Below, one piece after another: positions 16,201-43,292 of a DNA stretch of 61,323 bases. The notes below the pieces were generated by a model. It did not search any database. It was not told where the DNA came from and was given only the letters and a program-made list of their open reading frames with translations. The stretch comes from Nemertoderma westbladi (taxonomy: Eukaryota; Animalia; Xenacoelomorpha), in NCBI GenBank assembly GCA_032718475.1, contig JAUCBJ010002117.1, forward strand, positions 1 to 61,323. The letters run 5' to 3'. The translations under genes and the position numbers were made by a program. Every line of letters starts with the position of its first letter. Within the stretch, counting starts at the first letter, position 1.

Positions 16201-19200
16201 TACCATGGATTCCTCCCAGAGGATAATTGACTGTTAGTGTGTCCCCTCACTTCTGTTACCATGGATTCCTGTTACCATGGATTTTGCCAGTGGATCATTG
16301 ACTCTTAGTGTGTCCCCTCACTTCTGTTACCATGGATTCCTGTTACCAGGGATTCCTCCCAGTGGATAATTGACTGTTAGTGTGTCCCCTCACTTCTGTT
16401 ACCATGGATTCCTGTTACCATGGATTCCTCCCAGCGGATCATCTACTGTTAGTGTGTCCCCTCACTTCTGTTACCATGGATTCCATTGACTGTTAGTTTG
16501 TCCCCTCACTTCTGTTACCATGGATTCATGTTATCATGGATTCCTGTTACCATAGGTTCCTGTAGCCATGGATTCCTCCCAGCGGATCATCTACTGTTAG
16601 TGTGTCCCATCACTTCTGTTACCATGGATTCCATTGACTGTTAGTGTGTCCCCTCACTTCTGTTACCATGGATTCCTGTTACCATGGATTCCTCCCAGCG
16701 GATCATCTACTGTTAGTGTGCCCCCTCACTTCTGTTACCATTGATTCCTGTTACCATGGATTCCTCCCAGCGGATGATCTACTGTTAGTGTGTCCTCTCA
16801 CTTCTGTTACCATGGATTCCTGTTACCATGGATTCCTCCCAGCGGATCATCCACTGTTAGTGTGTCCCTTCACTTCTGTTACCATGGATTCCTGTTACCA
16901 TGGATTCCTCCCAGCGGATCATCTACTGTTAGTGTGTCCCCTCACTTCTGTTACCATGGATTCCTGTTACCATGGATTCCTCCCAGCGGATTATCTACTG
17001 TTAGTGTGTCCTCTCACTTCTGTTACCATGGATTCCTGTTACCATGGATTCCTCCCAGCGGATGATCTACTGTTAGTGTGTCCTCTCACTTCTGTTACCA
17101 TGGATTCCTGTTACCATGGATTCCTCCCAGCGGATTATCTACTGTTAGTGTGTCCCCTCACTTCTGTTACCATGGATTCCTGTTACCATGGATTCCTCCC
17201 AGCGGATCATCTACTGTTAGTGTGTCCTCTCACTTCTGTTACCATGGATTCCTGTTACCATGGATTCCTCCCAGCGGATCATCTACTGTTAGTGTGTCCC
17301 CTCACTTCTGTTACCATGGATTCCTGTAGCCATGGATTCCTCCCAGCGGATTATCGACTGTTAGTGTGTCCTCTCACTTCTGTTACCATGGATTCCCGTT
17401 ACCATGGATTCCTCCCAGCGGATTATCTACTGTTAGTGTGTCCCATCACCTCTGTTACCATGGATTCCTGTTGCCATGGATTCCTGTTACCATGGATTCC
17501 TCCCAGCGGATCATCTACTGTTAGTGTGTCCCCTCACTTCTGTTACCATGGATTCCTGTTACCATGGATTCCTCCCAGCGGATCATCCACTGTTAGTGTG
17601 TCCCCTCCCTTCTGTTACCATGGATTCCTGTTACCATGGATTCCTCCCAGCGGATCATCCACTGTTAGTGTGTCCCCTCCCTTCTGTTACCATGGATTCC
17701 TGTTACCATGGATTCCTCCCAGCGGATCATCTACTGTTAGTGTGTCCCCTCACTTCTGTTACCATGGATTCCATTGACTGTTAGTTTGTCCCCTCACTTC
17801 TGTTACCATGGATTCATGTTATCATGGATTCCTGTTACCATAGATTCCTGTAGCCATGGATTCCTCCCAGCGGATCATCTACTGTTAGTGTGTCCCATCA
17901 CTTCTGTTACCATGGATTCCATTGACTGTTAGTGTGTCCCCTCACTTCTGTTACCATGGATTCCTGTTACCATGGATTCCTCCCAGCGGATTATCTACTG
18001 TTAGTGTGTCCCATCACCTATGTTACCATGGATTCCTGTTACCATGGATTCCTCCCAGCGGATCATCTACTGTTAGTGTGTCCCCTCACTTCTGTTACCA
18101 TGGATTCCCGTTACCATGGATTCCTCCCAGCGGATTATCTACTGTTAGTGTGTCCCATCACCTCTGTTACCATGGATTCCTGTTACCATGGATTCCTGTT
18201 ACCATGGATTCCTCCCAGCTGATCATCTACTGTTAGTGTGTCCCCTCACTTCTGTTACCATGGATTCCTGTTACCATGGATTCCTCCCAGCGGATTATCT
18301 ACTGTTAGTGTGTCCCATCACCTCTGTTACCATGGATTCCTGTTACCATGGATTCCTGTTACCATGGATTCCTCCCAGCGGATCATCTACTGTTAGTGTG
18401 TCCCCTCACTTCTGTTACCATGGATTCCCGTTACCATGGATTCCTCCCAGCGGATTATCTACTGTTAGTGTGTCCCATCACCTCTGTTACCATGGATTCC
18501 TGTTACCATGGATTCCTGTTACCATGGATTCCTCCCAGCGGATCATCTACTGTTAGTGTGTCCCCTCACTTCTGTTACCATGGATTCCTGTTACCATGGA
18601 TTCCTCCCAGCGGATCATCTACTGTTAGTGTGTCCCCTCACTTCTGTTACCATGGATTCCATTGACTGTTAGTTTGTCCCCTCACTTCTGTTACCATGGA
18701 TTCCTGTTACCATGGATTCCTCCCAGCGGATCATCCACTGTTAGTGTGTCCCCTCCCTTCTGTTACCATGGATTCCTGTTACCATGGATTCCTCCCAGCG
18801 GATCATCTACTGTTAGTGTGTCCCCTCACTTCTGTTACCATGGATTCCATTGACTGTTAGTTTGTCCCCTCACTTCTGTTACCATGGATTCATGTTATCA
18901 TGGATTCCTGTTACCATAGATTCCTGTAGCCATGGATTCCTCCCAGCGGATCATCTACTGTTAGTGTGTCCCATCACTTCTGTTACCATGGATTCCATTG
19001 ACTGTTAGTGTGTCCCCTCACTTCTGTTACCATGGATTCCTGTTACCATGGATTCCTCCCAGCGGATCATCTACTGTTAGTGTGCCCCCTCACTTCTGTT
19101 ACCATGGATTCCTGTTACCATGGATTCCTCCCAGCGGATGATCTACTGTTAGTGTGTCCTCTCACTTCTGTTACCATGGATTCCTGTTACCATGGATTCC

Positions 19201-22200
19201 TCCCAGCGGATCATCCACTGTTAGTGTGTCCCTTCACTTCTGTTACCATGGATTCCTGTTACCATGGATTCCTCCCAGCGGATCATCTACTGTTAGTGTG
19301 TCCCCTCACTTCTGTTACCATGGATTCCTGTTACCATGGATTCCTCCCAGCGGATTATCTACTGTTAGTGTGTCCTCTCACTTCTGTTACCATGGATTCC
19401 TGTTACCATGGATTCCTCCCAGCGGATCATCTACTGTTAGTGTGTCCTCTCACTTCTGTTACCATGGATTCCTGTAGCCATGGATTCCTCCCAGCGGATT
19501 ATCGACTGTTAGTGTGTCCTCTCACTTCTGTTACCATGGATTCCCGTTACCATGGATTCCTCCCAGCGGATTATCTACTGTTAGTGTGTCCCATCACCTC
19601 TGTTACCATGGATTCCTGTTACCATGGATTCCTGTTACCATGGATTCCTCCCAGCGGATCATCTACTGTTAGTGTGTCCTCTCACTTCTGTTACCATGGA
19701 TTCCTGTTACCATGGATTCCTCCCAGCGGATCATCTACTGTTAGTGTGTCCTCTCACTTCTGTTACCATGGATTCCTGTTACCATGGATTCCTCCCAGCG
19801 GATGATCTACTGTTAGTGTGTCCCCTCACTTCTGTTACCATGGATTCCTGTTACCATGGATTCCTCCCAGAGGATAATTGACTGTTAGTGTGTCCCCTCA
19901 CTTCTGTTACCATGGATTCCTGTTACCATGGATTTTGCCAGTGGATCATTGACTCTTAGTGTGTCCCCTCACTTCTGTTACCATGGATTCCTGTTACCAG
20001 GGATTCCTCCCAGTGGATAATTGACTGTTAGTGTGTCCCCTCACTTCTGTTACCATGGATTCCTGTTACCATGGATTCCTCCCAGCGGATCATCTACTGT
20101 TAGTGTGTCCCCTCACTTCTGTTACCATGGATTCCATTGACTGTTAGTTTGTCCCCTCACTTCTGTTACCATGGATTCATGTTATCATGGATTCCTGTTA
20201 CCATAGATTCCTGTAGCCATGGATTCCTCCCAGCGGATCATCTACTGTTAGTGTGTCCCATCACTTCTGTTACCATGGATTCCATTGACTGTTAGTGTGT
20301 CCCCTCACTTCTGTTACCATGGATTCCTGTTACCATGGATTCCTCCCAGCGGATCATCTACTGTTAGTGTGCCCCCTCACTTCTGTTACCATGGATTCCT
20401 GTTACCATGGATTCCTCCCAGCGGATGATCTACTGTTAGTGTGTCCTCTCACTTCTGTTACCATGGATTCCTGTTACCATGGATTCCTCCCAGCGGATCA
20501 TCCACTGTTAGTGTGTCCCTTCACTTCTGTTACCATGGATTCCTGTTACCATGGATTCCTCCCAGCGGATCATCTACTGTTAGTGTGTCCCCTCACTTCT
20601 GTTACCATGGATTCCTGTTACCATGGATTCCTCCCAGCGGATCATCCACTGTTAGTGTGTCCCTTCACTTCTGTTACCATTGATTCCTGTTACCATGGAT
20701 TCCTCCCAGCGGATCATCTTCTGTTAGTGTGTCCCCTCACTTCTGTTACCATGGATTCCTGTTACCATGGATTCCTCCCAGCGGATTATCTACTGTTAGT
20801 GTGTTCTCTCACTTCTGTTACCATGGATTCCTGTTACCATGGATTCCTCCCAGCGGATGATCTACTGTTAGTGTGTCCTCTCACTTCTGTTACCATGGAT
20901 TCCTGTTACCATGGATTCCTCCCAGCGGATTATCTACTGTTAGTGTGTCCCCTCACTTCTGTTACCATGGATTCCTGTTACCATGGATTCCTCCCAGCGG
21001 ATCATCTACTGTTAGTGTGTCCTCTCACTTCTGTTACCATGGATTCCTGTTACCATGGATTCCTCCCAGCGGATCATCTACTGTTAGTGTGTCCCCTCAC
21101 TTCTCTTACCATGGATTCCTGTAGCCATGGATTCCTCCCAGCGGATTATCGACTGTTAGTGTGTCCTCTCACTTCTGTTACCATGGATTCCTGTTACCAT
21201 GGATTCCTCCCAGCGGATTATCTACTGTTAGTGTGTCCCATCACCTCTGTTACCATGGATTCCTCCCAGTGGATCATCTACTGTTAGTGTGTCCCCTCAC
21301 TTCTGTTACCATGGATTCCTGTTACCATGGATTCCTCCCAGCGGATCATCTACTGTTAGTGTGTCCTCTCACTTCTGTTACCATGGATTCCTGTTACCAT
21401 GGATTCCTCCCAGCGGATCATCTCCTGTTAGTGTGTCCCATCACTTCTGTTACCATGGATTCCTGTTACCATGGATTCCTCCCAGCGGATTATCGACTGT
21501 TAGTGTGTCCTCTCACTTCTGTTACCATGGATTCCTGTTACCATGGATTCCTCCCAGCTGATTATCTACTGTTAGTGTGTCCCATCACCTCTGTTACCAT
21601 GGATTCCTGTTACCATGGATTCCTGTTACCATGGATTCCTGTTACCATGGATTCCTCCCAGCGGATCATCTACTGTTAGTGTGTCCTCTCACTTCTGTTA
21701 CCATGGATTCCTGTTACCATGGATTCCTCCCAGCGGATGATCTACTGTTAGTGTGTCCCCTCACTTCTGTTACCATGGATTCCTGTTACCATGGATTCCT
21801 CCCAGCGGATGATCTACTGTTAGTGTGTCCTCTCACTTCTGTTACCATGGATTCCTGTTACCATGGATTCCTCCCAGCGGATCATCTACTGTTAGTGTGT
21901 CCTCTCACGTCTGTTACCATGGATTCCTGTTACCATGGATTCCTCCCAGCGGATTATCGACTGTTAGTGTGTCCTCTCACTTCTGTTACCATGGATTCCT
22001 GTTACCATGGATTCCTCCCTGCGGATCATCTACTGTTAGTGTGTCCCCTCACTTCTGTTACCATGGATTCCTCCCAGCGGATTATCTACTGTTAGTGTGT
22101 CCTCTCACTTCTGTTACCATGGATTCCTGTTACCTTGGATTCCTTCAAGCGGATGATCTACTGTTAGTGTGTCCCCTCACTTCTGTTACCATGGATTCCT

Positions 22201-22612
22201 GTTACCATGGATTCCTCCCAGCGGATGATCTACTGTTAGTGTGTCCTCTCACTTCTGTTACCATGGATTCCTGTTACCATGGATTCCTCCCAGCGGATCA
22301 TCTACTGTTAGTGTGTCCTCTCACTTCTGTTACCATGGATTCCTGTTACCATGGATTCCTCCCAGCGGATTATCGACTGTTAGTGTGTCCTCTCACTTCT
22401 GTTACCATGGATTCCTGTTACCATGGATTCCTCCCAGCGGATCATCTACTGTTAGTGTGTCCCCTCACTTCTGTTACCATTGATTCCTCCCAGCGGATTA
22501 TCTACTGTTAGTGTGTCCTCTCACTTCTGTTTCCATGGATTCCTGTTACCATGGATTTCTCCCAGCGGATCATCTACTGTTAGTGTGTCCCATCACTTCT
22601 GTTACCATGGAT
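10232..22612. repeat. 12.4-kb compound minisatellite: 72-bp unit built on a 16-bp core (ctgttaccatggattc), with 40/56/88-bp variants and kb-scale higher-order duplications
   Basis: Unit actgttagtgtgtcccctcacttctgttaccatggattcctgttaccatggattcctcccagcggatcatct; the same variant series restarts at 12488, 14262, 16644, 19008 and 20295. Confidence 0.97.
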
Positions 22613-23525
22613 TTTGGATTCTGAGATCTGCTGAAGACCTCCGAATTAAACGTGAAACGTGGTCTGGATTAAATATTACATCAAGGGTTTGGAAATCACC
22701 TAATCATTTTCAATCTTTCTATTTCCCGTGAACCGACTTGTAAATTTACGTACATTGTGACTTTACCATTAGTACTAGTAATTTTTATTTTCCACATGTT
22801 AATATCTTCCTTTTGATAATAAATGCGGTAATCTTACAAATAAAATGAAATAACCTCTGGGAAGAGGAAAAAGAGAACCGGGTGAGGGGGACTTTGGCCG
22901 TTATGAGACAAAGTGGCCCTCGGAATTGTAATTACGGCCAAAAGTGGTCGTAATTATATCAATCTTTCATAAAATTATAATAGTATATCTAGTCTATAAT
23001 ATAAAACGCAAGTCTATGTCGTAAAATACTTGGTGCTGCTTCCCCGCTATAGGAAACACTGCTTGCAAACACTCTCGGTTATCTCTATGTCCAACAGCAG
23101 CGGTGGTACCGTTTGGGCATATGAGATTAGCGAAACTTTACCCCGAGAACTCTATCCGTTACAAATAACAATAGGCCACTTGGTAAAGGGCGCAAAGCAG
23201 CGGGCCCAGAGTGAAGACTGGGATCAGTTTACTACAGGCACTCCCGAGCAAGATCTGGCGACCTGCGTCCCGGCTAGTTAGTAAGCTAGACAACGACACC
23301 AGAAGAGTAAGCCAGATAACATACGAGTAAAAGTGAAGAAAACGCAGCATTTTATAGACTTAGATTGACGCCACGCCCGTTAAACTCGACCAGTGCACAT
23401 TAATAATTAATATGTTTCCATTAACCAGTAAGTAATTTTTATTAATATTGATTCGCCCAGTTAATGAATTGTTATCACCGGGATGTGAAACATGTACAGT
23501 ACAATGAAAGGAAGAGCTAGAACAC

Positions 23526-24671: not shown

Positions 24672-25615
24672 TCTACTACTATCACTATTACTAGGTTGAG
24701 CGCGTTCGGACAGTGTAAATGAGATCCTTAGAGGCTTCCCGATTCTCCATAGTTGTCGCAATTTCGTTTCTCCCAAGTTCAGTATCCCTTTCAAGTTGAT
24801 CTATATATTTTATGGCCGGTCGTCCACGACTACGCTTTCCCTGAGTTGGTTGCCAGAAAAGTAGATCTGGTATGACCTCGTCTTTACTTCGCCAGCAGTG
24901 CCCACAGAATCTGAATCTGCGTTCACGGAGGGTGGTTGATACAGGTGGTATTGTAATTGTACCATAAAGCTCGGCGTTTGTCATGTGTTGTTTTCAACTG
25001 ATGTTTAGGGCTGCCCTTAGTAGTCTTGTGTATCAACCATCAATTCGTTGTTCAAGTGATTTCGCCAGTGTCCATGTCTTTGAAAGTACACTCTCCACTG
25101 TGGCTCAAAATCGGGTGACGGATGAGCTCCATGATTTCAAGATCAATTGTGATACCTTGATCTTGTCTTTGCTTTCTTAACTTCTATGTATTTTTCGCTG
25201 CTCCCTATCCATGACCCAATATACTAGAAGTCGTAAAATTTCCTTGGTGGATTTTTATCAATTGTTTTCAAGTAAATATTAAAAGTCATGAATTCGGAAT
25301 TGGTATGATGCAATCCATCTTCCTTAGCAGCCTTCTCCACTTTATTCAGTAGAAGCTATGCATCTGTTAGCGTATTAGAAATCTGGGCGATATCATCCGC
25401 AAAGTCGGTGTCTGTGACTGTAGTTGACATATATCTACTACTTCTTCTGTGTTCTTGTAGTAGTGTGCATCGAATATCTTCTCACTTTGTGGCAGTCATC
25501 GTTGCGTAATACAATATAATTATGAATGGTAATGGCTATAATGTGTCACCTTGCAGTACGCCAGCCAGGATTGAGAAGAACTCAATTTCACCAGCTGGTG
25601 TGAGTACCTGACTAT
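24672..25615 (-). mobile_element. 5'-truncated, degenerate RTE-type LINE with short (TAG/TAA)-like tail
   Basis: Minus strand gives LAGVLQGDT (~25545-25570), VTDTDFADDIA (~25387-25420) and C-terminal LRERRFRFCGHCWR...LLFWQPTQGKRSRGRP; near-copy of 56290-56850. Confidence 0.9.
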
Positions 25616-27640: not shown

Positions 27641-28295
27641 TTTATTCCTCTAGACTAAATCTTTCAAATTCCTCGATATGACGAAAGACAGGGTAGTCTA
27701 CTTTTCTTGGGGACTGGGACTTGCCAATCTTTCTTAAATTCTCGTTGCCACACCATTGCCGAATTGGCTAAGCTGTCAAGCTGTGCCCAACGATCAACGA
27801 AAATAACGATACTATGAAACCTCTCTTTCATTTGATTTCATTTGGTTTCATATACACAAAATACCAATAATTATTTATTTTTATCATACTCTGATATTTG
27901 ATCATGGGAACCAAGGCAACTTGGGAAACAGAGTGGAAGGGTTTACTGTGATTAACTTTTTACTAAGATTACCCGTGGTGGTGAACAGGCATTCCTTGAC
28001 TTAACGAGCCTAAAAGATTCTCCCATTCATATTTTATCATTATTTTATAGATATATTGCAACATTTTTTTTATAACTCATAGTGATCCCCCCCAAACTAT
28101 TTTTATCATAAATTGAACTTAACATTTCAGAAAGGGCTTTTTAAATTACAGCCTGTATTTTTAATTACTTCATGATTTTATTCCTTTAAGTTCTATATCC
28201 ATGAACTATCTTTTTATAACAATACTTACTACTTGACATTCTATTCGTAGTTTTTCTCGTTTTTTATCTTTTAATATTTATTTTAATTATTTATT

Positions 28296-29065
28296 AGTAG
28301 TAATAGTATGCCACTCTCTGCGACAGTTGGACCTACTTCGCACCTTGGGTGTTAAGTAGGTCATTAATTAATCAACCAATTAATTAATTGGTCGATTAAA
28401 CAATTAATTAATTGTTTAATCAATCGATTTGTATCAAATAATGTTGCCAAAGGCAATTTAATTTGACACAAATCAATCAGATAGGGACGCGAGATGAATA
28501 AATTGTACTATAACAAACGAAATATACAACACAATAGGAACCATACAATATAATATACAATACATTTGTATTATTTTTGCCGTACAGTAGGTAAAGGTAG
28601 AATTAAATATAAAGACACGAGCGGGGCCCAAAACATAAATTACCCTCACTCGAAAATAAAGTGGACCAGTTTGGCCCTGAGTCATCCATCAATAATCTGC
28701 GGTCGTTGCATTAGCTCAACAACAAAGGCAATACCCAAACACCATGTCTCAAATTAACCCCAACCTTCTCTATACTAGTTACTGGAGTTTTTCTCGCGCA
28801 TACCAACTTCAATCCCACACCTCTTCTCCCCACGCCATCGAACATTCTCCTTTCTTCTCTACCTTTTTTTCTTTTTTCTCTTCTTTTTTCTCCTCTTTTA
28901 TTTTCTGAAAAATTGAGTTCCTGTTCCTATATTCGCAATACCGCAGATGGTGGTCCTTTTCAGCTTCTCTAAAGCTGTGTGCGGCTTCAAAAGGACACTG
29001 AACCATTTTTTCGCTGGGAAAGTTCTTACGACATTTTCTTAAATGGTTGACATATTTTTCTGAAT
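28296..29065 (+). repeat. Left terminal inverted repeat
   Basis: Reverse complement of 31325-32106; mirrored identical ORFs in the track (28473-28685 vs 31717-31929; 28566-28757 vs 31645-31836). Confidence 0.95.
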
Positions 29066-29108
29066 GAATTCGATGTGTGGCGTCATATGGACATATAAAA
29101 TATTCCAT
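28809..29108 (-). CDS. GTSF1-like: GTSF1/Asterix-like protein, 99 aa, two CHHC (U11-48K-type) zinc fingers, intronless
   Basis: MEYFI-CPYDATHRIHSEKYVNHLRKC-RKNFP...CPFEAAHSFREAEKDHHLRYC...WGEEVWD*; CPY/CPF-x3-H-x9-H-x3-C tandem with the RKN linker typical of GTSF1. First ATG at 29108 (track ORF starts at an upstream TTG). Confidence 0.88.
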   Translation of the reverse strand: MEYFICPYDATHRIHSEKYVNHLRKCRKNFPSEKMVQCPFEAAHSFREAEKDHHLRYCEYRNRNSIFQKIKEEKKEEKKEKKVEKKGECSMAWGEEVWD

Positions 29109-29203
29109 AGTAACAAAAGACAAAAGACAAAAGACAAAATTTATTTAGATTTACTTTTTAAAAAAAAAAAAAAACTTTGAAAAACCTCGCTTAATATTTT
29201 TTA

Positions 29204-29241
29204 GAGATAATGATCTAACTTTACATGGTTTTATTTATATA
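29204..29241 (-). promoter_or_regulatory. Candidate TATA box plus initiator for the GTSF1-like gene
   Basis: Minus-strand TATATAAA (29241-29234) with TCATT about 26 nt downstream, ~130 nt upstream of the ATG. AT-rich context, so could be chance. Confidence 0.4.
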
Positions 29242-29839
29242 GAAAGGTCCACCTTAACATTTCAAACAGAACCATAGTTTTTGGTATGGCATGCGTGAAG
29301 GATTAAGCATCCCACGGAATCCCACGTTGAGTTATACTCTAGAATGAAATATAAAGACACAATCGGGGCCCAAAACATAAATTACCCTCACTCGAAAATA
29401 AAGTGGACCAGTTTGGCCCTGAGTCATCCCTCAATAATCTGCGGTCGTTGGGCTCTTATTAACCATAGCATGACTAATCCAAACATCGAATCCTATACTG
29501 TATGTCAACGCGTGAATGGGACCTGCGATAGAGTTTAAATTATTCAAACCTATAGCTTCGTTATTACATCAATTCGCCTAAGAAAATTATAATAAACATC
29601 TGCTCTTGCAATAGATTGCATTCTTTCGCATTGTATTGCGAAGCAGTCCACGCGCATATTAGCTAAACAACAAACCATCGCCCAAACGCCATGTGTCAAG
29701 TCCATGTGAGGGTTGAACCCATGACATGCGGGAGATGTGAATTCAAAGCAACCACTACACCAAGGTGAAACAGTAACGTTTGAATTTGTTCGTTAACGTT
29801 CGAATTTGTAAGACTCTGATTTAAGACCTGAGGCACTCC

Positions 29840-30334
29840 CCACAACCACAGCCACAGCCACAGCCACAACCACAGCCACAACCACAACCACAGCCACAGC
29901 CACAACCACAGCCACAGCCACAGCCACAGCCACAGCCACAACCACAGCCACAGCCACAGCCACAACCACAGCCACAGCCACAGCCACAGCCACAGCCACA
30001 ACCACAGCCACAGCTACAGCCACAGCCACAGACCACAGCCACAGCCACAACCACAGCCACAGCCACAGCCACGAGCCACAGCCACAGACCACAGCCACAA
30101 CCACAGCCACAGCCACAACCACAGCCACAGCCACAGCCACAACCACAGCCACAGCCACAACCACAGCCACAGCCACAGCCACACCACAGCCACAACCACA
30201 GCCACAGCCACAGCCACAACCACAGCCACAGCCACAACCACAACCACAGCCACAGCCACAGCCACAACCACAGCCACAACCACAGCCACAACCACAGCCA
30301 CAACCACAGCCACAGCCATAGCCACAACCACAGC
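29840..30334. repeat. (CCACAG/CCACAA)n hexamer microsatellite at the centre of the element
   Basis: ~80 copies of ccacag/ccacaa; source of the WLWL/CGCG/VAVA ORFs. Confidence 0.97.
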
Positions 30335-30439
30335 CTCACCTTCACCCACTTTATTGTTAAATACGCCTGAGAAAAATTCAAGAAACATCTGGTTTACAAT
30401 AGATTATTCTTTTTTCACAACTCCATTCTAGCCTCCCTC

Positions 30440-30475
30440 TATAAAAGCCCCCATTCACCGCATTCTCATTCATTC
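30440..30475 (+). promoter_or_regulatory. Candidate TATA box plus initiator for the C2H2/acidic ORF
   Basis: TATAAAAG at 30440-30447 followed by cattctcattcattc at 30461-30475; ATG at 30587. Confidence 0.55.
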
Positions 30476-30586
30476 TCTAATTTTTATTTTTAAAAGTTTT
30501 ATTTATTTTCATAAAAGTTTTATTTATTTAAAATTTTGTAAAATCATTCAGCGAAAATTCATAATATCAATTGACATTGCTATATA

Positions 30587-31351
30587 ATGCCTAGCTATGA
30601 AAGATGTTTGGTTTGTAATAAAGAAATGAGACGAGACAGTATATCCCGTCATATGAGTATACATAGAAAGGAAGGTGTAATGGAACCATTACCAAAGAAA
30701 TTAAAAAATAATGATGATATTTTTAGTGAAGAAGAAAACAAAAAGAGAGTTGAGAGTGATTTTCTAGAGATTAAACAAATGATGAAACATAAATTCGAGA
30801 AAATCATGAATATTTTGAAGAATATACAGAAACAGCCACATAGTGAAAAGGACGATGAGAGTGAGGAAGAGAATAAATCAGAGGAAAGTGAGAATGATGA
30901 AACGGAGAGTGAGATAGAGAAAGAAGAAAATGAGAGTGGTGGTGAAGAAAATGAGAGCGAGAAAGAAGTCGAGGAACATGAAAGTGGTGAGGATAATGAC
31001 TCAGATAATGAGGAGATATTAAGACATGTATTAGGAAATAAAAATAAATTGCAGAAAATAATTAGACAATTGAATGAAATGCAGAAACATTCGCATAAGG
31101 AGAGTGATAATGATGGAAATGAGAGTGATGAGGATGAATCGGAGGAGAGTAGCGATGACAGTGAGGAAGAATCAAAGGAGGGTAGCGATGACAGTGAGGA
31201 AGCATCAGAGGAGAATGACAATGAAAATGGACAGAAAATCAGAGTAGGGAATGGAAAAGTTATATCTCCAGCAACTGTTGTATATCGACCTAGGATTATG
31301 AACAGTAACAGTCGTACAGTTAAAATTCAGAAAAATATGTCAACCATTTAA
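30587..31351 (+). CDS. 254-aa protein: N-terminal C2H2 zinc finger, NLS-like PKKLK, two Asp/Glu/Ser-rich tracts; probably 3'-truncated at the TIR junction
   Basis: CLVCNKEMRRDSISRHMSIH (C-x2-C-x12-H-x3-H); last residues IQKNMSTI are read out of frame from the right TIR. Confidence 0.7.
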   Translation: MPSYERCLVCNKEMRRDSISRHMSIHRKEGVMEPLPKKLKNNDDIFSEEENKKRVESDFLEIKQMMKHKFEKIMNILKNIQKQPHSEKDDESEEENKSEESENDETESEIEKEENESGGEENESEKEVEEHESGEDNDSDNEEILRHVLGNKNKLQKIIRQLNEMQKHSHKESDNDGNESDEDESEESSDDSEEESKEGSDDSEEASEENDNENGQKIRVGNGKVISPATVVYRPRIMNSNSRTVKIQKNMSTI

Positions 31352-31593
31352 GAAAATGTCGTAAGAACTTTCCCAGCGAAAAAATGGTTCAGTGTCCTTT
31401 TGAAGCCGCACACAGCTTTAGAGAAGCTGAAAAGGACCACCATCTGCGGTATTGCGAATATAGGAACAGGAACTCAATTTTTCAGAAAATAAAAGAGGAG
31501 AAAAAAGAAGAGAAAAAAGAAGAGAAAAAAGAAAAAAAGGTAGAGAAGAAAGGAGAATGTTCGATGGCGTGGGGAGAAGAGGTGTGGGATTGA
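31325..31593 (+). pseudogene. 5'-truncated inverted duplicate of the GTSF1-like gene in the right TIR
   Basis: Begins mid zinc finger 1 (SEKYVNHLRKC), keeps finger 2 and WGEEVWD; has one extra 12-bp EEKK unit; internal ATG at 31384 gives a 69-aa ORF. Confidence 0.85.
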
Positions 31594-32106
31594 AGTTGGT
31601 ATGCGCGAGAAAAACTACAGTAACTAGTATAGAGAAGGTTGGGGTTAATTTGAGACATGGTGTTTGGGTATTGCCTTTGTTGTTGAGCTAATGCAACGAC
31701 CGCAGATTATTGATGGATGACTCAGGGCCAAACTGGTCCACTTTATTTTCGAGTGAGGGTAATTTATGTTTTGGGCCCCGCTCGTGTCTTTATATTTAAT
31801 TCTACCTTTACCTACTGTACGGCAAAAATAATACAAATGTATTGTATATTATATTGTATGGTTCCTATTGTGTTGTATATTTCGTTTGTTATAGTACAAT
31901 TTATTCATCTCGCGTCCCTATCTGATTGATTTGTGTCAAATTAAATTGCCTTTGGCAACATTATTTGATACAAATCGATTGATTAAACAATTAATTAATT
32001 GTTTAATCGACCAATTAATTAATTGGTTGATTAATTAATGACCTACTTAACACCCAAGGTGTGAAGTGGGTCCAACTGTCGCCAAAGAGGGGTAACCATT
32101 ACTACT
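31325..32106 (-). repeat. Right terminal inverted repeat
   Basis: Reverse complement of 28296-29065; mismatches concentrated in the outer ~50 bp. Confidence 0.95.
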
Positions 32107-34908
32107 TCTATTGTACCAGCATACCCATAATGATTTTATTTGAAACTGCTATCTAATTCCGTCCATCTGAATTTTTTACCCACGAACCCAAAATTATTAT
32201 TTTATATGCTGATATTTTATTCTATAAATTTTACGAAATATTTTATTAACAATTTTATGTGGTGCCTTTGTTTAGTTACATACTATTTACTTATTTACTA
32301 TATACATACAGTAGTTAGGTGTGTATTACTTATTTACTACATACATACACTAGTTAGGTGTGTATTACTTATTTACTACATACATACACTAGTTAGGTGT
32401 GTATTACTTATTTACTACATACATACAGTAGTTAGGTGTGTATTACTTATTTACTACATATATACAGTAGTTAAGTGTGTATTACTTATTTACTACATAC
32501 ATACAGTAGTTAGGTGTGTATTACTTATTTACTACATACATACAGTAGTTAGGTGTGTATTACTGATTTACTACATACATACAGTTAGTTAAGTGTGTAT
32601 TACTTATTTACTACATACATACAGTAGTTAGGTGTGTATTACTTATTTACTACATACATACAGTAGTTAGGTGTGTATTACTTATTTACTACATATATAC
32701 AGTAGTTAAGTGTGTATTACTTATTTACTACATACATACAGTAGTTAGGTGTGTATTACTGATTTACTACATACATACAGTTAGTTACGTGTGTATTACT
32801 TATTTACTACATACATACAGTAGTTAGGTGTGTATTACTTATTTACTACATACATACAGTAGTTAGGTGTGTATTACTTATTTACTACATACATACAGTA
32901 GTTAGGTGTGTATTACTTATTTACTACATACATACAGTAGTTAGGTGTGTATTACTTATTTACTACATACATACAGTAGTTAGGTGTGTATTACTTATTT
33001 ACTACATATATACAGTAGTTAAGTGTGTATTACTTATTTACTACATACATACAGTAGTTAGGTGTGTATTACTTATTTACTACATACATACAGTAGTTAG
33101 GTGTGTATTACTGATTTACTACATACATACAGTTAGTTAAGTGTGTATTACTTATTTACTACATACATACAGTAGTTAGGTGTGTATTACTTATTTACTA
33201 CATACATACAGTAGTTAGGTGTGTATTACTTATTTACTACATATATACAGTAGTTAAGTGTGTATTACTTATTTACTACATACATACAGTAGTTAGGTGT
33301 GTATTACTTATTTACTACATACATACAGTAGTTAAGTGTGTATTACTGATTTACTACATACATACAGTTAGTTAAGTGTGTACTACTGATTTACTACATA
33401 CATACAGTAGTTAGGTGTGTATTACTTATTTACTACATACATACAGTAGTTAGGTGTGTATTACTTATTTACTACATACATACAGTAGTTAGGTGTGTAT
33501 TACTTATTTACTACATACATACACTAGTTAGGTGTGTATTACTTATTTACTACATACATACACTAGTTAGGTGTGTATTACTTATTTACTACATACATAC
33601 AGTAGTTAGGTGTGTATTACTTATTTACTACATATATACAGTAGTTAAGTGTGTATTACTTATTTACTACATACATACAGTAGTTAGGTGTGTATTACTT
33701 ATTTACTACATACATACAGTAGTTAGGTGTGTATTACTTATTTACTACATACATACAGTAGTTAGGTGTGTATTACTTATTTACTACATACATACAGTAG
33801 TTAGGTGTGTATTACTTATTTACTACATACATACAGTAGTTAGGTGTGTATTACTTATTTACTACATACATACAGTAGTTAGGTGTGCATTACTGATTTA
33901 CTACATACATACAGTAGTTAGGTGTGTATTACTGATTTACTACATACATACAGTAGTTAGGTGTGTATTACTTATTTACTACATACATACAGTAGTTAGG
34001 TGTGTATTACTGATTTACTACATACATACAGTAGTTAGGTGTGTATTACTTATTTACTACATACATACAGTAGTTAGGTGTGTATTACTGATTTACTACA
34101 TACATACAGTTAGTTAAGTGTGTATTACTTATTTACTACATACATACAGTAGTTAAGTGTGTATTACTGATTTACTACATACATACAGTTATTTAAGTGT
34201 GTATTACTGATTTACTACATACATACAGTAGTTAGGTGTGTATTACTTATTTACTACATACATACAGTAGTTAGGTGTGTATTACTTATTTACTACATAC
34301 ATACAGTAGTTAGGTGTGTATTACTGATTTACTACATACATACAGTAGTTAGGTGTGTATTACTGATTTACTACATACATACAGTAGTTAGGTGTGTATT
34401 ACTGATTTACTACATACATACAGTAGTTAGGTGTGTATTACTTATTTACTACATACATACAGTAGTTAGGTGTGTATTACTTATTTACTACATATATACA
34501 GTAGTTAAGTGTGTATTACTTATTTACTACATACATACAGTAGTTAGGTGTGTATTACTTATTTACTACATACATACAGTAGTTAGGTGTGTATTACTTA
34601 TTTACTACATACATACAGTAGTTAGGTGTGTATTACTTATTTACTACATACATACAGTAGTTAGGTGTGTATTACTTATTTACTACATACATACAGTAGT
34701 TAGGTGTGTATTACTGATTTACTACATACATACAGTAGTTAGGTGTGCATTACTGATTTACTACATACATACAGTAGTTAGGTGTGTATTACTGATTTAC
34801 TACATACATACAGTAGTTAGGTGTGTATTACTTATTTACTACATACATACAGTAGTTAGGTGTGTATTACTGATTTACTACATACATACAGTAGTTAGGT
34901 GTGTATTA

Positions 34909-35617
34909 CAGTACAGGCCACCAGATAACGCAGATTTGTACAATTGTGAACACATTTTATCAAATGTGTACCAGTGTAATGTAATGTTGTTGAACGGGAC
35001 AATTGAACATAATTGAACATAATTGAATTGGCAACAACCAAAATTTTTTCGCCAAAGGATACAATTGAATACTTTTGAAACGCTTAGTAATCTGGAAACT
35101 CTCTGTAGTTTGCCGCCAACTGTCACTCACTGCAGCTGGAAATGCAATAAGGATATTGTTTACCTTTATAGTGTGCGGTTAATAGTGTCTAGTAGGCAGG
35201 CCTATAGCTAGTGATGTTAAAGCATGTTTCTGGTCTTTCTCTGTGCCCTCTCGGTGTCAGACTAATGGCGCGACATCTCCCTGCACTAAATTAATTATTC
35301 AATGGTCTAGGCTCCTCCATCCACATACCCATCCACTTCCATACACTCCATGAACCTCCATGTGGTCTTGTATGTAGTTCTCTCTCTACCAATACAGCCC
35401 ATGTCCGCAATGTTACGCCCTGGGGGCTCTCTCATCTACCTGATATCAGACATACAGGCGCACCACACGCAAAGCCTTTGTCGGTCCCAGCAAGTTAGCC
35501 TCCTGCTGTGTGATCTAGAAGATAACTCGCCATAACCTGCCAATCAGATGACTTGAACAAATGTGTTAACATGTGATCACATTGGATGAAATCTGCTTTT
35601 TCTGGTGGCCTGTACTG
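34909..35617. mobile_element. Tc1/mariner-type MITE, 709 bp, copy 1
   Basis: TA-cagtacaggccaccagataacgcagattt ... aaatctgctttttctggtggcctgtactg-TA; ~29-bp TIR, TA duplication of the satellite's gtgtatTActtattt site; no transposase ORF. Confidence 0.9.
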
Positions 35618-37344
35618 TACTTATTTACTACATACATACAGTAGTTAGGTGTGTATTACTGATTTACTACATACATACAGTTAGTTAAGTGTGTATTACT
35701 TATTTACTACATACATACAGTAGTTAAGTGTGTATTACTGATTTACTACATACATACAGTTAGTTAAGTGTGTATTACTGATTTACTACATACATACAGT
35801 AGTTAGGTGTGTATTACTTATTTACTACATACATACAGTAGTTAGGTGTGTATTACTTATTTACTACAGACATACAGTAGTTAGGTGTGTATTACTGATT
35901 TACTACATACATACAGTAGTTAGGTGTGTATTACTGATTTACTACATACATACAGTAGTTAGGTGTGTATTACTGATTTACTACATACATACAGTAGTTA
36001 GGTGTGTATTACTTATTTACTACATACATACAGTAGTTAGGTGTGTATTACTTATTTACTACATACATACAGTAGTTAGGTGTGTATTACTGATTTACTA
36101 CATACATACAGTAGTTAGGTGTTTATTACTGATTTACTACATACATACAGTAGTTAGGTGTGTATTACTTATTTATGTACTACATACATACAGTAGTTAG
36201 GTGTGTATTACTGATTTACTACATACATACAGTAGTTAGGTGTGTATTACTGATTTACTACATACATACAGTAGTTAGGTGTGTATTACTTATTTACTAC
36301 ATACATACAGTAGTTAGGTGTGTATTACTTATTTACTACATACATACAGTAGTTAGGTGTGTATTACTGATTTACTACATACATACAGTAGTTAGGTGTG
36401 TATTACTTATTTACTACATACATACAGTAGTTAGGTGTGTATTACTGATTTACTACATACATACAGTTAGTTAAGTGTGTATTACTTATTTACTACATAC
36501 ATACAGTAGTTAGGTGTGTATTACTGATTTACTACATACATACAGTAGTTAGGTGTGTATTACTTATTTACTACATACATACAGTAGTTAGGTGTGCATT
36601 ACTTATTTACTACATACATACAGTAGTTAGGTGTGTATTACTGATTTACTACATACATACAGTAGTTAGGTGTGTATTACTTATTTACTACATACATACA
36701 GTAGTTAGGTGTGTATTACTGATTTACTACATACATACAGTTAGTTAAGTGTGTATTACTTATTTACTACCTACATACAGTAGTTAAGTGTGTATTACTG
36801 ATTTACTACATACATACAGTTAGTTAAGTGTGTATTACTGATTTACTACATACATACAGTAGTTAGGTGTGTATTACTTATTTACTACATACATACAGTA
36901 GTTAGGTGTGTATTACTTATTTACTACATACATACAGTAGTTAGGTGTGTATTACTGATTTACTACATACATACAGTAGTTAGGTGTGTATTACTGATTT
37001 ACTACATACATACAGTAGTTAGGTGTGTATTACTGATTTACTACATACATACAGTAGTTAGGTGTGTATTACTGATTTACTACATACATACAGTAGTTAG
37101 GTGTGTATTACTTATTTACTACATACATACAGTAGTTAGGTGTGTATTACTTATTTACTACATATATACAGTAGTTAAGTGTGTATTACTTATTTACTAC
37201 ATACATACAGTAGTTAGGTGTGTATTACTTATTTACTACATACATACAGTAGTTAGGTGTGTATTACTTATTTACTACATACATACAGTAGTTAGGTGTG
37301 TATTACTGATTTACTACATACATACAGTAGTTAGGTGTGTATTA

Positions 37345-38053
37345 CAGTACAGGCCACCAGATAACGCAGATTTGTACAATTGTGAACACATTTTATCAAA
37401 TGTGTACCAGTGTAATGTAATGTTGTTGAACGGGACAATTGAACATAATTGAACATAATTGAATTGGCAACAACCAAAATTTTTTCGCCAAAGGATACAA
37501 TTGAATACTTTTGAAACGCTTAGTAATCTGGAAACTCTCTGTAGTTTGCCGCCAACTGTCACTCACTGCAGCTGGAAATGCAATAAGGATATTGTTTACC
37601 TTTATAGTGTGCGGTTAATAGTGTCTAGTAGGCAGGCCTATAGCTAGTGATGTTAAAGCATGTTTCTGGTCTTTCTCTGTGCCCTCTCGGTGTCAGACTA
37701 ATGGCGCGACATCTCCCTGCACTAAATTAATTATTCAATGGTCTAGGCTCCTCCATCCACATACCCATCCACTTCCATACACTCCATGAACCTCCATGTG
37801 GTCTTGTATGTAGTTCTCTCTCTACCAATACAGCCCATGTCCGCAATGTTACGCCCTGGGGGCTCTCTCATCTACCTGATATCAGACATACAGGCGCACC
37901 ACACGCAAAGCCTTTGTCGGTCCCAGCAAGTTAGCCTCCTGCTGTGTGATCTAGAAGATAACTCGCCATAACCTGCCAATCAGATGACTTGAACAAATGT
38001 GTTAACATGTGATCACATTGGATGAAATCTGCTTTTTCTGGTGGCCTGTACTG
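37345..38053. mobile_element. Tc1/mariner-type MITE, copy 2
   Basis: Appears identical to copy 1 at offset 2436 (identical ORFs in the track), same position in the satellite unit. Confidence 0.9.
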
Positions 38054-38638: not shown

Positions 38639-39510
38639 GCTTATCAATAAGTTTATCATACCTACGGACAATACGGCACTGTCACGTATGACATGTTGTT
38701 GAATACATTGTTTCGCGTCTTTTCTTTGTTTATGGTATTGTGATTAAGTATTAGTAAAGAACTTAAATCCGTTTACACAATTATTCTCTTGTTGTTGTTT
38801 TCGCCTGTCATTTTTATGTCCGTATTTTTCTAAAGAGTAATGAGTTCTTAATAACCGCGGAATTATCATGTAACATGGCATATAACTATTAACAGCAGTA
38901 TATTACGCTTATTACAGTAATTATTGTTATTATTTAATTACTTACCTGTATATATTTTCTATTTATATTTAATGTAATCTGTCTCTACTGCCTTAGTCGA
39001 TTATGAAAATCGACTTGACTATTTCTAGTGTTTTTCGATGTTCTTTACAATGTTAATTTTTTAAATATGAAAAATTAAGTTTTTAAATGTATTCACTGTA
39101 TAGTATGTAGGACCTGTTTATTTTTTGTTATTAATCTACGATGTTTACTGACTTATTATTTACTATGCTTAATTACCGAAATGAACTCTTTATTTTGTAC
39201 AATCCCATTAGTCATGTAATTTTTTCAATAAGCCTATAGTTTATGTATGTGTAATCTATGTCCGTTATTTTGTATTTGCTTTACTGTACGTTATTATGTA
39301 TGTGCGACTCAGAGAGACCTTAATTACAATATAGCCAGCCAAATGGTGAAATCAGGGACATTTCAGGGAATTTAGAAAAATAGGTTTCGGTATTTTTTGT
39401 GGATATTTTCATTTAAATTTCTCCATTAGGATTTTAAAAACTTTGTTCTCAAAACATCATTCATTGAAATTAGTCTAACTGAACCAACTAAACTAAACCA
39501 ATTCATCAGT

Positions 39511-42500
39511 CGTGACACTGTTCTGTAACCGGCACACACCTAAACAATGCACCGTGACACTGCTCTGTAACCGACACACACCTAAACAATGCACCGTGAC
39601 ACTGCTCTGTAACCGGCACACCACTAAACAATGCACCATGACACTGCTCTGTAACCGGCACACACCTAAACAATGCACCGTGACAATGCTCTGTAACCGG
39701 CACACACCTAAACAATGCACCGTGACACTGCTCTGTAACCGGCACACACCTAAACAATGCACCGTGACAATGCTCTGTAACCGGCACACACCTAAACAAT
39801 GCACCGTGACACTGCTCTGTAACCGACACACACCTAAACAATGCACCGTGACACTGCTCTGTAACCGGCACACACCTAAACAATGCACCGTGACAATGCT
39901 CTGTAACCGGCACACACCTAAACAATGCACCGTGACACTGCTCTGTAACCGACACACACCTAAACAATGCACCGTGACACTGCTCTGTAACCGGCACACA
40001 CCTAAGCAATGCACCGTGACACTGCTCTGTAACCGGCACACACCTAAACAATGCACCGTGACACTGCTCTGTAACCGGCACACACCTAAACAATGCACCG
40101 TGACACTGCTCTGTAACCGGCACAAACCTAAACAATACACCGTAACAATGCTCTGTAACCGGCACACACATAAACAATGCACCGTGGCACTGCTCTGTAA
40201 CCGGCACACACCTAAACAATGCACCGTGACACTGCTCTGTAACCGGCACACACCTAAACAATATACCGTGACACTGCTCTGTAACCGGCACACACCTAAA
40301 CAATGCACCGTGACACTGCTCTGTCAACAATGCACTGTGACACTGCTCTGTAACCGGCACACACATAAAACAAAGCACCGTGACTCTGCTCTGTAACCGG
40401 CACACACATAAACAATGCATCGTGACACTGCTCTGTAACCGGCACACACCTAAACAATGCACCGTGACACTGTTCTGTCAACAATGCACGGTGACACTGC
40501 TCTGTAACCCGCACACACCAAAACAATGCACCGTGACACTGCTCTGTAACCAACACACCACTAAACAATGCACCGTGACACTGCTCTGTAACCGGCACAC
40601 ACCTAAACAATGCACCGTGACACTGCTCTGTAACCGGCACACACCTAACTAAACAATACTCCGTGACACTGCTCTGTAACTGGCACTCACCTCAACAATG
40701 CACCGTGACACTGCTCTGTAACCGGCACACACCTAAACAATGCACCGTGACGCTGCTCTGTAACCGACACACACCTAAACAATGCACCGTGACACTGCTC
40801 TGTAACCCTCACATACCTAAACAATGCACCGTTACACTGCTCTGTAACCGGCACACACCTAAACAATGCACCGTGACACTCCTATGAAACCGGCACACAC
40901 CTAAACAATGCACAGTGACACTGCTCTGTAACCGGCACACACCTAAACAATGCACCGTGACACTGCTCTGTAACCGGCACACACATAAACAATGCACCGT
41001 GACACTGCTCTGTAACCGGCACTCACCTCAACAATGCACCGTGACACTGCTCTGTAACCGGCACACACCTAAACAATGCACCGTCACACTGCTCTGTAAC
41101 CGGCACTCACCTCAACAATGCACCGTGACACTGCTCTGTAACCGGCACACACCTAAACCCTAAACAATGCACCGTGACACTGCTCTGTAACCGGCCCACA
41201 CCTAACTAAACAATACTCCGTGACACTGCTCTGTAACCGGCACACACCTAACTAAACAATGCACCGTGACACTGCTCTGTAACCGGCACTCACCTCAACA
41301 ATGCACCGTGACACTGCTCTGTAACCGGCACACACATAAACAATGCACCGTGACAATGCTCTGTAACCGGCACACACCTAAACAATGCACCGTGACACTG
41401 CTCTGTAACCGGCACACACCTAAACAATGCACCGTGACAATGCTCTGTAACCGGCACACACCTAAACAATGCACCGTGACACTGCTCTGTAACCGACACA
41501 CACCTAAACAATGCACCGTGACACTGCTCTGTAACCGGCACACACCTAAACAATGCACCGTGACAATGCTCTGTAACCGGCACACACCTAAACAATGCAC
41601 CGTGACACTGCTCTGTAACCGACACACACCTAAACAATGCACCGTGACACTGCTCTGTAACCGGCACACACCTAAACAATGCACCGTGACACTGCTCTGT
41701 AACCGGCACACACCTAAACAATGCACCGTGACACTGCTCTGTAACCGGCACACACCTAAACAATGCACCGTGACACTGCTCTGTAACCGGCACAAACCTA
41801 AACAATACACCGTAACAATGCTCTGTAACCGGCACACACAAACAATGCACCGTGGCACTGCTCTGTAACCGGCACACACCTAAACAATGCACCGTGACAC
41901 TGCTCTGTAACCGGCACACACCTGAACAATGTACCGTGACACTGCTCTGTAACCGGCACACACCTAAACAATGCACCGTGACACTGCTCTGTCAACAATG
42001 CACTGTGACACTGCTCTGTAACCGGCACACACATAAAACAAAGCACCGTGACTCTGCTCTGTAACCGGCACACACATAAACAATGCATCGTGACACTGCT
42101 CTGTAACCGGCACACACCTAAACAATGCACCGTGACACTGTTCTGTCAACAATGCACGGTGACACTGCTCTGTAACCCGCACACACCAAAACAATGCACC
42201 GTGACACTGCTCTGTAACCAACACACCACTAAACAATGCACCGTGACACTGCTCTGTAACCGGCACACACCTAAACAATGCACCGTGACACTGCTCTGTA
42301 ACCGGCACACACCTAACTAAACAATACTCCGTGACACTGCTCTGTAACTGGCACTCACCTCAACAATGCACCGTGACACTGCTCTGTAACCGGCACACAC
42401 CTAAACAATGCACCGTGACGCTGCTCTGTAACCGACACACACCTAAACAATGCACCGTGACACTGCTCTGTAACCCTCACATACCTAAACAATGCACCGT

Positions 42501-43292
42501 TACACTGCTCTGTAACCGGCACACACCTAAACAATGCACCGTGACACTCCTATGAAACCGGCACACACCTAAACAATGCACAGTGACACTGCTCTGTAAC
42601 CGGCACACACCTAAACAATGCACCGTGACACTGCTCTGTAACCGGCACACACATAAACAATGCACCGTGACACTGCTCTGTAACCGGCACTCACCTCAAC
42701 AATGCACCGTGACACTGCTCTGTAACCGGCACACACCTAAACAATGCACCGTCACACTGCTCTGTAACCGGCACTCACCTCAACAATGCACCGTGACACT
42801 GCTCTGTAACCGGCACACACCTAAACCCTAAACAATGCACCGTGACACTGCTCTGTAACCGGCACACACCTAACTAAACAATACTCCGTGACACTGCTCT
42901 GTAACCGGCACACACCTAACTAAACAATGCACCGTGACACTGCTCTGTAACCGGCACACACATAAACAATGCACCGTGACAATGCTCTGTAACCGGCACA
43001 CACCTAAACAATGCACCGTGACAATGCTCTGTAACCGGCACACACCTAAACAATGCACCGTGACACTGCTATGTAACCGGCACACACCTAAACCCTAAAC
43101 AAAGCACCGTGACAATGCTCTGTAACCGGCACACACCTAAACAATGTACCGTGACACTGCTCTGTAACCGGCACACACCTAAACCCTAAACAATGCACTG
43201 TGACACTGCTCTGTAACCGGCACACACCTAAACAATGCACCGTGACACTGCTCTGTAACCGACACAGACATAAACAATGCACCGTGACACTG
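39511..43292. repeat. Second 42-bp minisatellite with a 1668-bp higher-order duplication
   Basis: Unit cgtgacactgctctgtaaccggcacacacctaaacaatgcac; identical variant blocks at 40296/41964, 40663/42331, 40915/42583. Confidence 0.97.

Follow-up and report, generated by a model that had tools for sequence, protein, structure and literature searches.

An insertion with Maverick-type ends

Within the window, the 61,323 nucleotides of Nemertoderma westbladi DNA that were analysed, lies a mobile element with two open reading frames, one of which encodes a GTSF1/Asterix-like protein (Table 1). The AGTAGT...ACTACT termini, the inverted repeats of about 770 bp and the near-perfect 6-bp target-site duplication described in the first-pass annotation were all recovered. 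The arms are identical in 762 of 769 aligned columns; their outer 45 bp contain eight differences (six mismatches and two one-base gaps) and their inner 725 bp one base difference and one in-frame 12-bp indel. The flanking 6-mers agree at five of six positions, for which the chance estimated from flank composition is about 0.02. Contigs from the sequencing runs X1 and X2, which belong to two studies and one of which is possibly the source of the window, connect position 28289 to 32107 and thereby skip 3817 bases, that is, 3811 plus 6. Since exactly the element and 6 bp are skipped, the insertion was precise and was accompanied by a 6-bp duplication. The empty site could represent either an allele or paralogous flanking sequence. 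A chance palindrome was rejected as a reading of the element.

According to depth bins of the run contigs, the outer ~410 bp of the left arm are the high-depth terminus of the family; further in, the arm consists of 3' sequence of a GTSF1-like cassette (28709-29339), which is bracketed by the two copies of a 111-bp sub-terminal module.

Table 1. Positions of the element and its features in the window
Feature	Position	Strand	Basis or remark
Mobile element, 3811 bp	28296..32106		Inserted DNA between target copies
Left target-site copy TTTATT	28290..28295	.	Arm alignment and empty-site joint 28289-32107
Left inverted arm, 770 bp, begins AGTAGT	28296..29065	+	Arm alignment
111-bp sub-terminal module, copy 1	28598..28708	+	Direct repeat downstream of gene; 96% to 29340-29450
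Intronless 99-aa GTSF1/Asterix homologue	28809..29108	-	Pfam, sequence matches, model, differences
TATA-like box TATATAAA	29234..29241	-	126 nt upstream of ATG; putative promoter
111-bp sub-terminal module, copy 2	29340..29450	+	Upstream of gene
(CCACAG/CCACAA)n microsatellite	29840..30335	+	Sequence
ORF2, 254 aa	30587..31351	+	N-terminal C2H2-like finger, long acidic tract
Right inverted arm, 782 bp, terminates ACTACT	31325..32106	-	Arm alignment
5'-truncated second GTSF1-like ORF copy	31327..31593	+	Residues 16-99 plus 4 linker residues
Right target-site copy TCTATT	32107..32112	.	Arm alignment and empty-site joint

The hallmarks given for Mavericks in the cited section are (AGT)2//(ACT)2 ends, arms of 46-1447 bp and a 6-bp target duplication (PMC8097293). 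The end motif, the inverted-repeat length (within ~50-1500 bp) and the 6-bp duplication of the element all correspond to those of Mavericks/Polintons, as do its intronless accessory ORFs adjoining the termini, whereas its length of 3.8 kb contrasts with 13-25 kb and its accessory gene is a piRNA-pathway cofactor (parts of PMC8097293, PMC6431247 and 10.1101/2023.08.22.554363). The genes for pPolB, integrase, ATPase, protease and capsid are absent from the element, neither ORF of which matches any of them, and a Pfam scan of nine window ORFs revealed no core Maverick genes. As polymerase, integrase and capsid genes are lacking, Maverick ancestry rests on the ends, and because protein-primed PolB and the retroviral-like integrase are missing, the element is not classed as an autonomous Maverick. 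Of the mini-Maverick with GTSF1 proposed initially, the ends, the insertion and the GTSF1 homology are thus upheld, but neither the element nor the window supplies the core genes. Two terminal motifs had no match in viral contigs and a sub-terminal motif none in metagenome contigs.

ORF2 is preceded by TATAAAA at 141 nt and is likely cut at the arm junction, with its last residues derived from the right arm; an X3 contig departs from the window sequence at 31323. No Pfam match above cut-off was obtained for ORF2, and none of 12 candidates from a word-based protein search with residues 1-90 was a close relative. In an Atlas search the best value was 0.85, and large DNA viruses appeared with C2H2 clusters at 0.81, both being leads only. 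Among the differences listed for ORF2, three of nine are synonymous, an uninformative proportion.

The GTSF1-like gene and its copies

The 99-aa ORF has the make-up attributed to it: it is intronless, follows a TATA-like box and contains two CHHC fingers (residues 6-26 and 38-58), a charged, helical Lys/Glu linker and a terminal WGEEVWD, the acidic motif of W93 and W98, directly after which comes the stop codon. A domain-profile comparison, as had been suggested, identified PF05253 twice (E 1.4e-10, 41.3 bits against a cut-off of 21.1), and the ORF matches mouse GTSF1 at E 2e-13 and the GTSF1 of 9nhb at E 2e-10. Judged by its sequence, it is a true GTSF1 homologue. An identity as U11-48K or TRM13 was rejected: each of these is a larger protein, spliceosomal or methyltransferase, that has just one CHHC finger, whereas the ORF encodes two fingers in 99 aa, and U11-48K gave E 0.047 versus 2e-13 for GTSF1. 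As residues 16-99 are encoded inside the left arm, a 5'-truncated second copy is present in the right arm, with no start codon or promoter ahead of it and its first Met within the inter-finger linker. The first-pass annotation had overlooked this copy, the 111-bp direct repeat and ORF2.

All eight zinc ligands are retained. W98 does not vary across 40 aligned sequences, and W93 is likewise present, five residues away. The inter-finger linker of 11 residues is shared with 107 of 132 homologues, and the finger-to-Trp distance of 39 equals their median. RNA binding by finger 1 of mouse GTSF1 has been assigned to R26, R29, K36 and K39 (PMC9385479, in part); three of these basic residues are kept, with K18, K25 and K28 matching R29, K36 and K39. 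The position of R26 is occupied by H15, a change pointed out in the first-pass annotation; since Arg occurs there in just 34 of 132 homologues, an argument from it is weak, and the change was rejected as a sign of inactivation. The charged linker is proline-free and 31% basic, compared with 11% basic residues and 8% Pro in the homologues. Over 61 finger columns the protein has at most 48% amino-acid identity to any of the 132 homologues, and in a tree of 71 rows and 61 columns its end branch is 1.34, against a median of 0.35. The tree does not place the protein, so the donor is not named. Of the 97 homologues that have the Trp motif, eight likewise end no more than nine residues past it; some of these may be partial. 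The structure model (pLDDT 86) most resembles 6x46 (E 4.6e-4) and 9nhc_E (E 1.3e-3, TM 0.50) in Foldseek, a match that is not independent of the sequence because a GTSF1 alignment underlies the model.

The exact protein is absent from the collection searched, and none of 942 candidates from a word-based search was a close relative. Viral contigs yielded no GTSF1 relatives among 601 and 49 candidate stretches, and a viral structure library nothing at E 0.001 or better. The 12 metagenome GTSF1 loci show neither resemblance to the element at the DNA level nor long viral ORFs. Six of them, genomic genes of host type, are interrupted inside the fingers, whereas the element gene is intronless; the other six are uninterrupted contigs of 1-2 kb. 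The first-pass annotation knew of no described Maverick-borne GTSF1, and in our literature search no transposon-borne GTSF1 was found.

In the species the ORF is multicopy, with variants 81-98% identical among the matches listed (31 of ~9580 pieces from run contigs). All seven ORF pieces listed are free of gaps, and among these matches their depth in X1/X2 is 38-269, compared with 26 and 16 for an exact-match flank contig. In a 92%-identical variant, homology extends to the stop codon and is followed by sequence resembling the sub-terminal module (joint 29676-28811, X1); a similar joint, 29585/31589, occurs in X3. To judge from these joints, elements carry other variants as well. Part of the ORF is deleted in two variants (joints 28836-28986, X2, and 31398-31570, X3), and some copies therefore decay. 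The depth of the cassette is far below that of the terminus or ORF2, from which it follows that most family members lack it. A sole host GTSF1, one of two outcomes that would have spoken against the first-pass annotation, was rejected, as the ORF is multicopy and intronless and lies in a real mobile insertion for which an empty site exists.

The other was neutral evolution. Sixteen distinct differences, pooled from several variants, were available from the 40 of 301 rows listed. Among those in the fingers, eight of ten are synonymous, where 2.6 are expected by change type (p 2.4e-4), so that purifying selection has acted on the protein, which has not evolved neutrally. In the linker and tail only one of six is synonymous, those of the linker being mostly non-synonymous, and residues 84-99 are untouched by all 16. 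That anatomy and selection together are as described here is highly probable.

Possible actions of the element protein

In the model that we favour, which is plausible and may well be wrong, a non-autonomous insertion with Maverick-type ends encodes an intact GTSF1 homologue, conserved among related copies, that binds to target-engaged PIWI in competition with host GTSF1, thereby weakening piRNA silencing of the element family. A spliced host GTSF1 would have been taken up by a Maverick ancestor as a cassette adjoining a terminus, as suggested by the intronless gene and the 111-bp direct repeat around it. The present copy would be the product of an internal deletion plus duplication of the end, mobilised by the integrase of a helper. 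Transcribed in the germline, outward from its own TATA box, the gene would yield a protein that holds the piRNA-target duplex with finger 1 and attaches to PIWI through its Trp motif, by analogy with host GTSF1. Because it is divergent, we propose, the protein could fill this site yet not fully permit slicing, or Maelstrom-dependent silencing, by element-targeting PIWI. It is possible, and put forward tentatively, that the GTSF1 encoded by a Maverick lineage is a dominant-negative mimic, which blocks the PIWI complex once this has engaged its target and which selection has retained across sub-families. Selectivity among PIWI proteins is known for GTSF paralogues, mouse GTSF2 activating MIWI and not MILI (PMC9385479, in part); a paralogue that looks intact can thus fail to activate. 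The host's own GTSF1 is absent from the sequences compared, which we count against the favoured model.

Arguing against inhibition is the finding that all features known to be needed for activation are kept or nearly so, with no lost function identified; the sequence therefore reads equally well as that of an activator. As the main rival, the protein would be a working PIWI activator, the extra GTSF1 serving to reinforce piRNA silencing of rival elements or to reduce damage in the germline that transmits the element. Both fingers, which are strongly conserved, three of four basic residues and the two Trp residues are retained, and the build equals that of silkmoth Gtsf1L, described as a functional host paralogue with fingers, a 39-aa tail and Trp99 (PMC10711660, in part). 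As Gtsf1L is equally short, the short form is no evidence of a decoy, and the 'minimal' length invoked in the first-pass annotation carries little weight. However, silencing of the activator's own carrier would also be strengthened, and the long branch and the basic, proline-free linker suggest altered use. We consider this explanation unlikely.

Passive cargo is quite improbable. Host GTSF1 retrocopies would have been amplified with the element, the synonymous excess being older than capture, for example if several host paralogues were captured separately. Mavericks are known carriers of cargo genes (parts of PMC11512509 and PMC11131425), the cassette occurs in only a minority of the family, and the ORF is deleted in part in two variants; yet the 81-98% variants adjoin element sequence, the listed pieces are gap-free, the finger differences are mainly synonymous and the gene has its own TATA-like box, positioned like that of ORF2. 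No less improbable is an RNA-binding role outside the PIWI pathway, on tRNA or element transcripts, or another partner. GTSF1 binds tRNA (PMC9539491, in part), nematode GTSF-1 has been rewired to bind an RNA polymerase (PMC13650160, in part), and the non-synonymous changes in the linker would fit such a role. The rewired nematode proteins, however, have lost the aromatic motif and the basic patch, and the element protein ends directly after a Trp motif that is free of the listed differences.

Very improbable is an action as RNA, in which piRNAs from the captured sequence silence host GTSF1, as proposed, via antisense piRNAs, for the nxf2 fragment carried by TART-A in Drosophila (PMC7785250, in part); the present copy contains the ORF twice, in opposite orientations, but it is conserved as protein while third positions drift, both ORF copies face outward, and the identity of at most 48% to 132 homologues, the host's own gene being unseen, makes a near-perfect nucleotide match to host GTSF1 unlikely.

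A GTSF1 mimic of 99 aa is small and soluble and suits existing slicing assays, which makes the question of transposon proteins that act on the pathway directly testable. An arms race with transposons is often invoked to explain why piRNA genes evolve fast. To our knowledge, animal transposon-encoded proteins that act on the piRNA pathway are hard to name. The precedent found in the literature, TART-A/nxf2, is RNA-based (PMC7785250, in part). If the dominant-negative reading is true, an animal transposon protein attacks the piRNA effector step directly and is built from the pathway's own cofactor. An inhibitor would be a natural antagonist of the pathway and a tool; an activator would be a case of an element arming host silencing. 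For Mavericks, either outcome would be without precedent in the literature searched.

Comparison with known systems

VANC of plant transposons and viral suppressors of RNAi are likewise proteins encoded by elements, and they dampen silencing by small RNAs or chromatin. They are not homologous to the element protein and, in contrast to it, none is known to be a copy of a cofactor of the pathway itself.

With GTSF1/Asterix, especially Bombyx Gtsf1L, the element protein shares tandem CHHC fingers of the same fold (parts of PMC9385479 and PMC10711660), the basic patch of finger 1 (3/4) and an acidic Trp motif, which is spaced as usual. It differs in being element-borne, multicopy and intronless, in an N-terminus that begins at finger 1, in its charged helical linker and in ending one residue past the Trp, against a median tail of 120. 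From rewired nematode GTSF-1 it is distinguished by the retained aromatic motif and basic patch. Nematode Mavericks likewise carry and spread host-derived genes (Widen et al. 2023, as cited in PMC11131425 and PMC11512509), which in the citing passages are proteases, kinases and a fusogen, with no silencing factor. As in TART-A/nxf2, sequence of a piRNA-pathway gene has been taken up by a mobile element; here, in contrast, the carrier is a DNA element and the whole ORF is conserved as protein.

Structure and insertion of the element

The element opens with AGTAGT at 28296 and closes with ACTACT at 32106, and its inverted arms are identical in 762 of 769 aligned columns, which bears out the Maverick-like termini and the inverted repeats of about 770 bp described in the first-pass annotation. 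Eight differences fall within the outer 45 bp of the arms, against two in the inner 725 bp: a single base and a 12-bp indel that keeps the reading frame. Either the ends of the family are asymmetric, or those of this element derive from different copies. The 6-mers flanking the element match at five of six positions (chance about 0.02). In contigs of the sequencing runs X1 and X2, two studies under one species label, one of which may be the source of the window, position 28289 is joined to 32107, with omission of 3817 bases that correspond to the element plus one target copy. The joint shows that the element was inserted precisely with a 6-bp duplication, so that the near-perfect target-site duplication also stands and the element is real; the empty-site form may be allelic or stem from a paralogous flank.

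These end features match the Maverick hallmarks in PMC8097293 and 10.1101/2023.08.22.554363, and judging from its ends the element very probably descends from a Maverick. It is not an autonomous Maverick, since genes for polymerase, integrase, ATPase, protease and capsid are absent from the element; none occurred among nine window ORFs scanned against Pfam. Its termini had no match in viral or metagenome contigs.

The 99-aa gene and ORF2 are both oriented outward. Residues 16-99 of the former fall within the arm, and the right arm therefore holds a truncated, start-less second copy. ORF2 enters the right arm and stops 27 bp inside it, and an abundant contig of a further run, X3, diverges from the window sequence at 31323; ORF2 thus likely continues differently in the parent element, the long arm having likely arisen in this copy by a deletion or by duplication of an end.

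Features of the element and of the surrounding window
Feature	Position	Strand	Remarks
Left terminus	from 28296		outermost left part of element
Left inverted arm	28296-29065
Outer 45 bp of arms	28296-28340; 32062-32106
111-bp module, copy 1	28598-28708		between left terminus and 99-aa gene
99-aa GTSF1-like gene	28809-29108	-
TATATAAA			126 nt upstream of 99-aa gene
111-bp module, copy 2	29340-29450		96% identical to copy 1
CCACAG/CCACAA microsatellite			between module copy 2 and ORF2
ORF2 (254 aa)	30587-31351		C2H2-like finger, acidic tract; TATAAAA 141 nt upstream
Right arm	31325-32106
Short repeat just left of element	27900-28030		very high depth (sum over 200,000 in three runs); internal head-to-tail joints
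LINE-like reverse-transcriptase fragments	1443-2798; 24689-25234; 56217-56848		one family, both orientations
Large tandem arrays	5158-9178; 10316-22613; 32300-38000; 39500-43000		units 42 bp, 72/16 bp, about 33 bp, about 36 bp; yield long spurious ORFs
Two ORFs (232 and 132 aa)	45571-47020	-	no Pfam matches; GC-richer than surroundings; downstream of BEL/Pao-like ORF
BEL/Pao-like gag-protease ORF (917 aa) and preceding Ala/Glu-rich ORF (415 aa)	48648-52773	-	DUF1759 E 4e-12 in the 917-aa ORF; no reverse transcriptase in frame
MITE-like fold-back element (875 bp)	57045-57919		inverted arms 36 and 167 bp; central TA-rich palindrome
Archaemetzincin-like ORF (353 aa)	60170-61231	-	uninterrupted; Peptidase_M54 E 1e-9; best match hemichordate, 39%

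Identity and origin of the 99-aa protein

The assignment to GTSF1/Asterix was upheld: the zf-U11-48K profile PF05253 matches the protein twice (E 1.4e-10), and mouse GTSF1 (E 2e-13) and the GTSF1 chain of 9nhb (E 2e-10) are matched as well. U11-48K itself was rejected, its match (E 0.047) being far poorer. A structure model (pLDDT 86) had 6x46 and 9nhc_E as first matches. The full search gave 636 matches, the best 150 at 28-58% identity; of nine checked by name, seven are labelled as animal host proteins and two are unnamed. The two-finger pattern could be parsed in 132 of these best 150. The inter-finger linker of 11 residues is the commonest length (107/132), the finger-to-Trp distance of 39 equals the median for the 97 homologues with an acidic Trp motif, and all 40 sequences of an alignment share W98. 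At the positions of mouse R26, R29, K36 and K39, required for RNA binding and activation (PMC9385479, in part), the protein has H, K, K and K; the His is no sign of loss, since Arg occurs there in only 34 of 132 homologues. Three traits are out of the ordinary: the tail after the Trp is a single residue (homologue median 120; nine or fewer in 8/97), the linker is proline-free, 31% basic and predicted to form a long helix, and the end branch is long, at 1.34 versus a median of 0.35 in a tree of 71 of 133 rows, in which placement is poorly supported. Some host GTSF1 records (P0001, P0002, P0007) have, before the usual two fingers, one more finger or a duplicate of the pair.

Host genomic GTSF1 loci in metagenomes break within the fingers in six of 12 cases, the other six being short, uninterrupted contigs of transcript-like appearance. 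Set beside these broken loci, the lack of introns in the element gene suggests that it was captured via RNA or has long resided in a replicon without introns.

Copies and selection

Comparison with contigs of four runs places the element, by depth, in a large family of repeats. In X1 the summed depth reaches the tens of thousands at the terminus and at the ORF2 start; it is 450-700 at the left copy of the gene, compared with 26 for a flank contig that matches exactly. Although depth tracks copy number only roughly, these values indicate that most members of the family lack the gene cassette, which is present in perhaps some tens of copies. Among the 31 pieces listed of about 9580, seven are ORF pieces, each gap-free, with identities of 98, 98, 92, 92, 86, 86 and 81%. 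In one X1 variant homology runs to the stop codon and is followed by sequence resembling the sub-terminal module (joint 29676-28811), which on sequence grounds makes this variant element-borne; X3 has a similar joint (29585/31589).

The differences listed, 40 of 301, include 18 within the two ORF copies of the element (16 distinct), several variants being pooled. Eight of the ten listed finger differences are synonymous, versus a site expectation of 18% (p 3e-5) and 2.6 expected when matched by change type (p 2.4e-4); neutral evolution of the copies, named earlier as an outcome that would speak against the reading, is not what was found. Zinc ligands are unchanged in all listed differences, and one of six linker and tail differences is synonymous. 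ORF-internal deletions in two variants (28836-28986 in X2, 31398-31570 in X3) count against conservation. The original observation is confirmed and is strengthened by the copy and selection evidence.

Possible action on PIWI and known systems

According to PMC13650160, PMC13269885, PMC13618286 and PMC9539491, GTSF1 binds target-engaged PIWI, and GTSF1, Maelstrom and PIWI form the active complex. A selected, element-borne GTSF1 copy with a basic patch and Trp motif would likely engage PIWI, where it may compete with host GTSF1. Competition is the reading we tentatively favour over a working activator, at somewhat under even chances, because the pathway targets the carrier, the sequence of the protein is divergent and intact paralogues can fail to activate a given PIWI, as mouse GTSF2 fails with MILI (PMC9385479, in part). 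That the protein is instead a working PIWI activator, the main rival, seems rather unlikely; in its favour, the protein lacks no feature known as required for activation, and silkmoth Gtsf1L is equally short (excerpts of PMC10711660). Passive cargo is improbable; Mavericks are known to carry cargo (portions of PMC6431247, PMC11512509 and PMC11131425). An RNA role outside the PIWI pathway would be marginally less probable still, and RNA-level targeting of the host GTSF1 gene is very improbable.

Titles and the openings of abstracts revealed no transposon- or virus-borne GTSF1; an annotation could still sit unnoticed in supplementary tables of accessory genes, in Repbase or in papers behind subscription. 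The parts examined of texts naming both GTSF1 and Maverick held only unrelated mentions, the zf-U11-48K literature has no title on mobile elements, and 'zinc finger' and 'piRNA' are absent from the main text of the adintovirus and coral polintovirus papers. Anti-silencing proteins are known from plants (VANC) and from viruses (suppressors of RNAi). The nearest precedent is TART-A/nxf2, which is RNA-based (PMC7785250, abstract).
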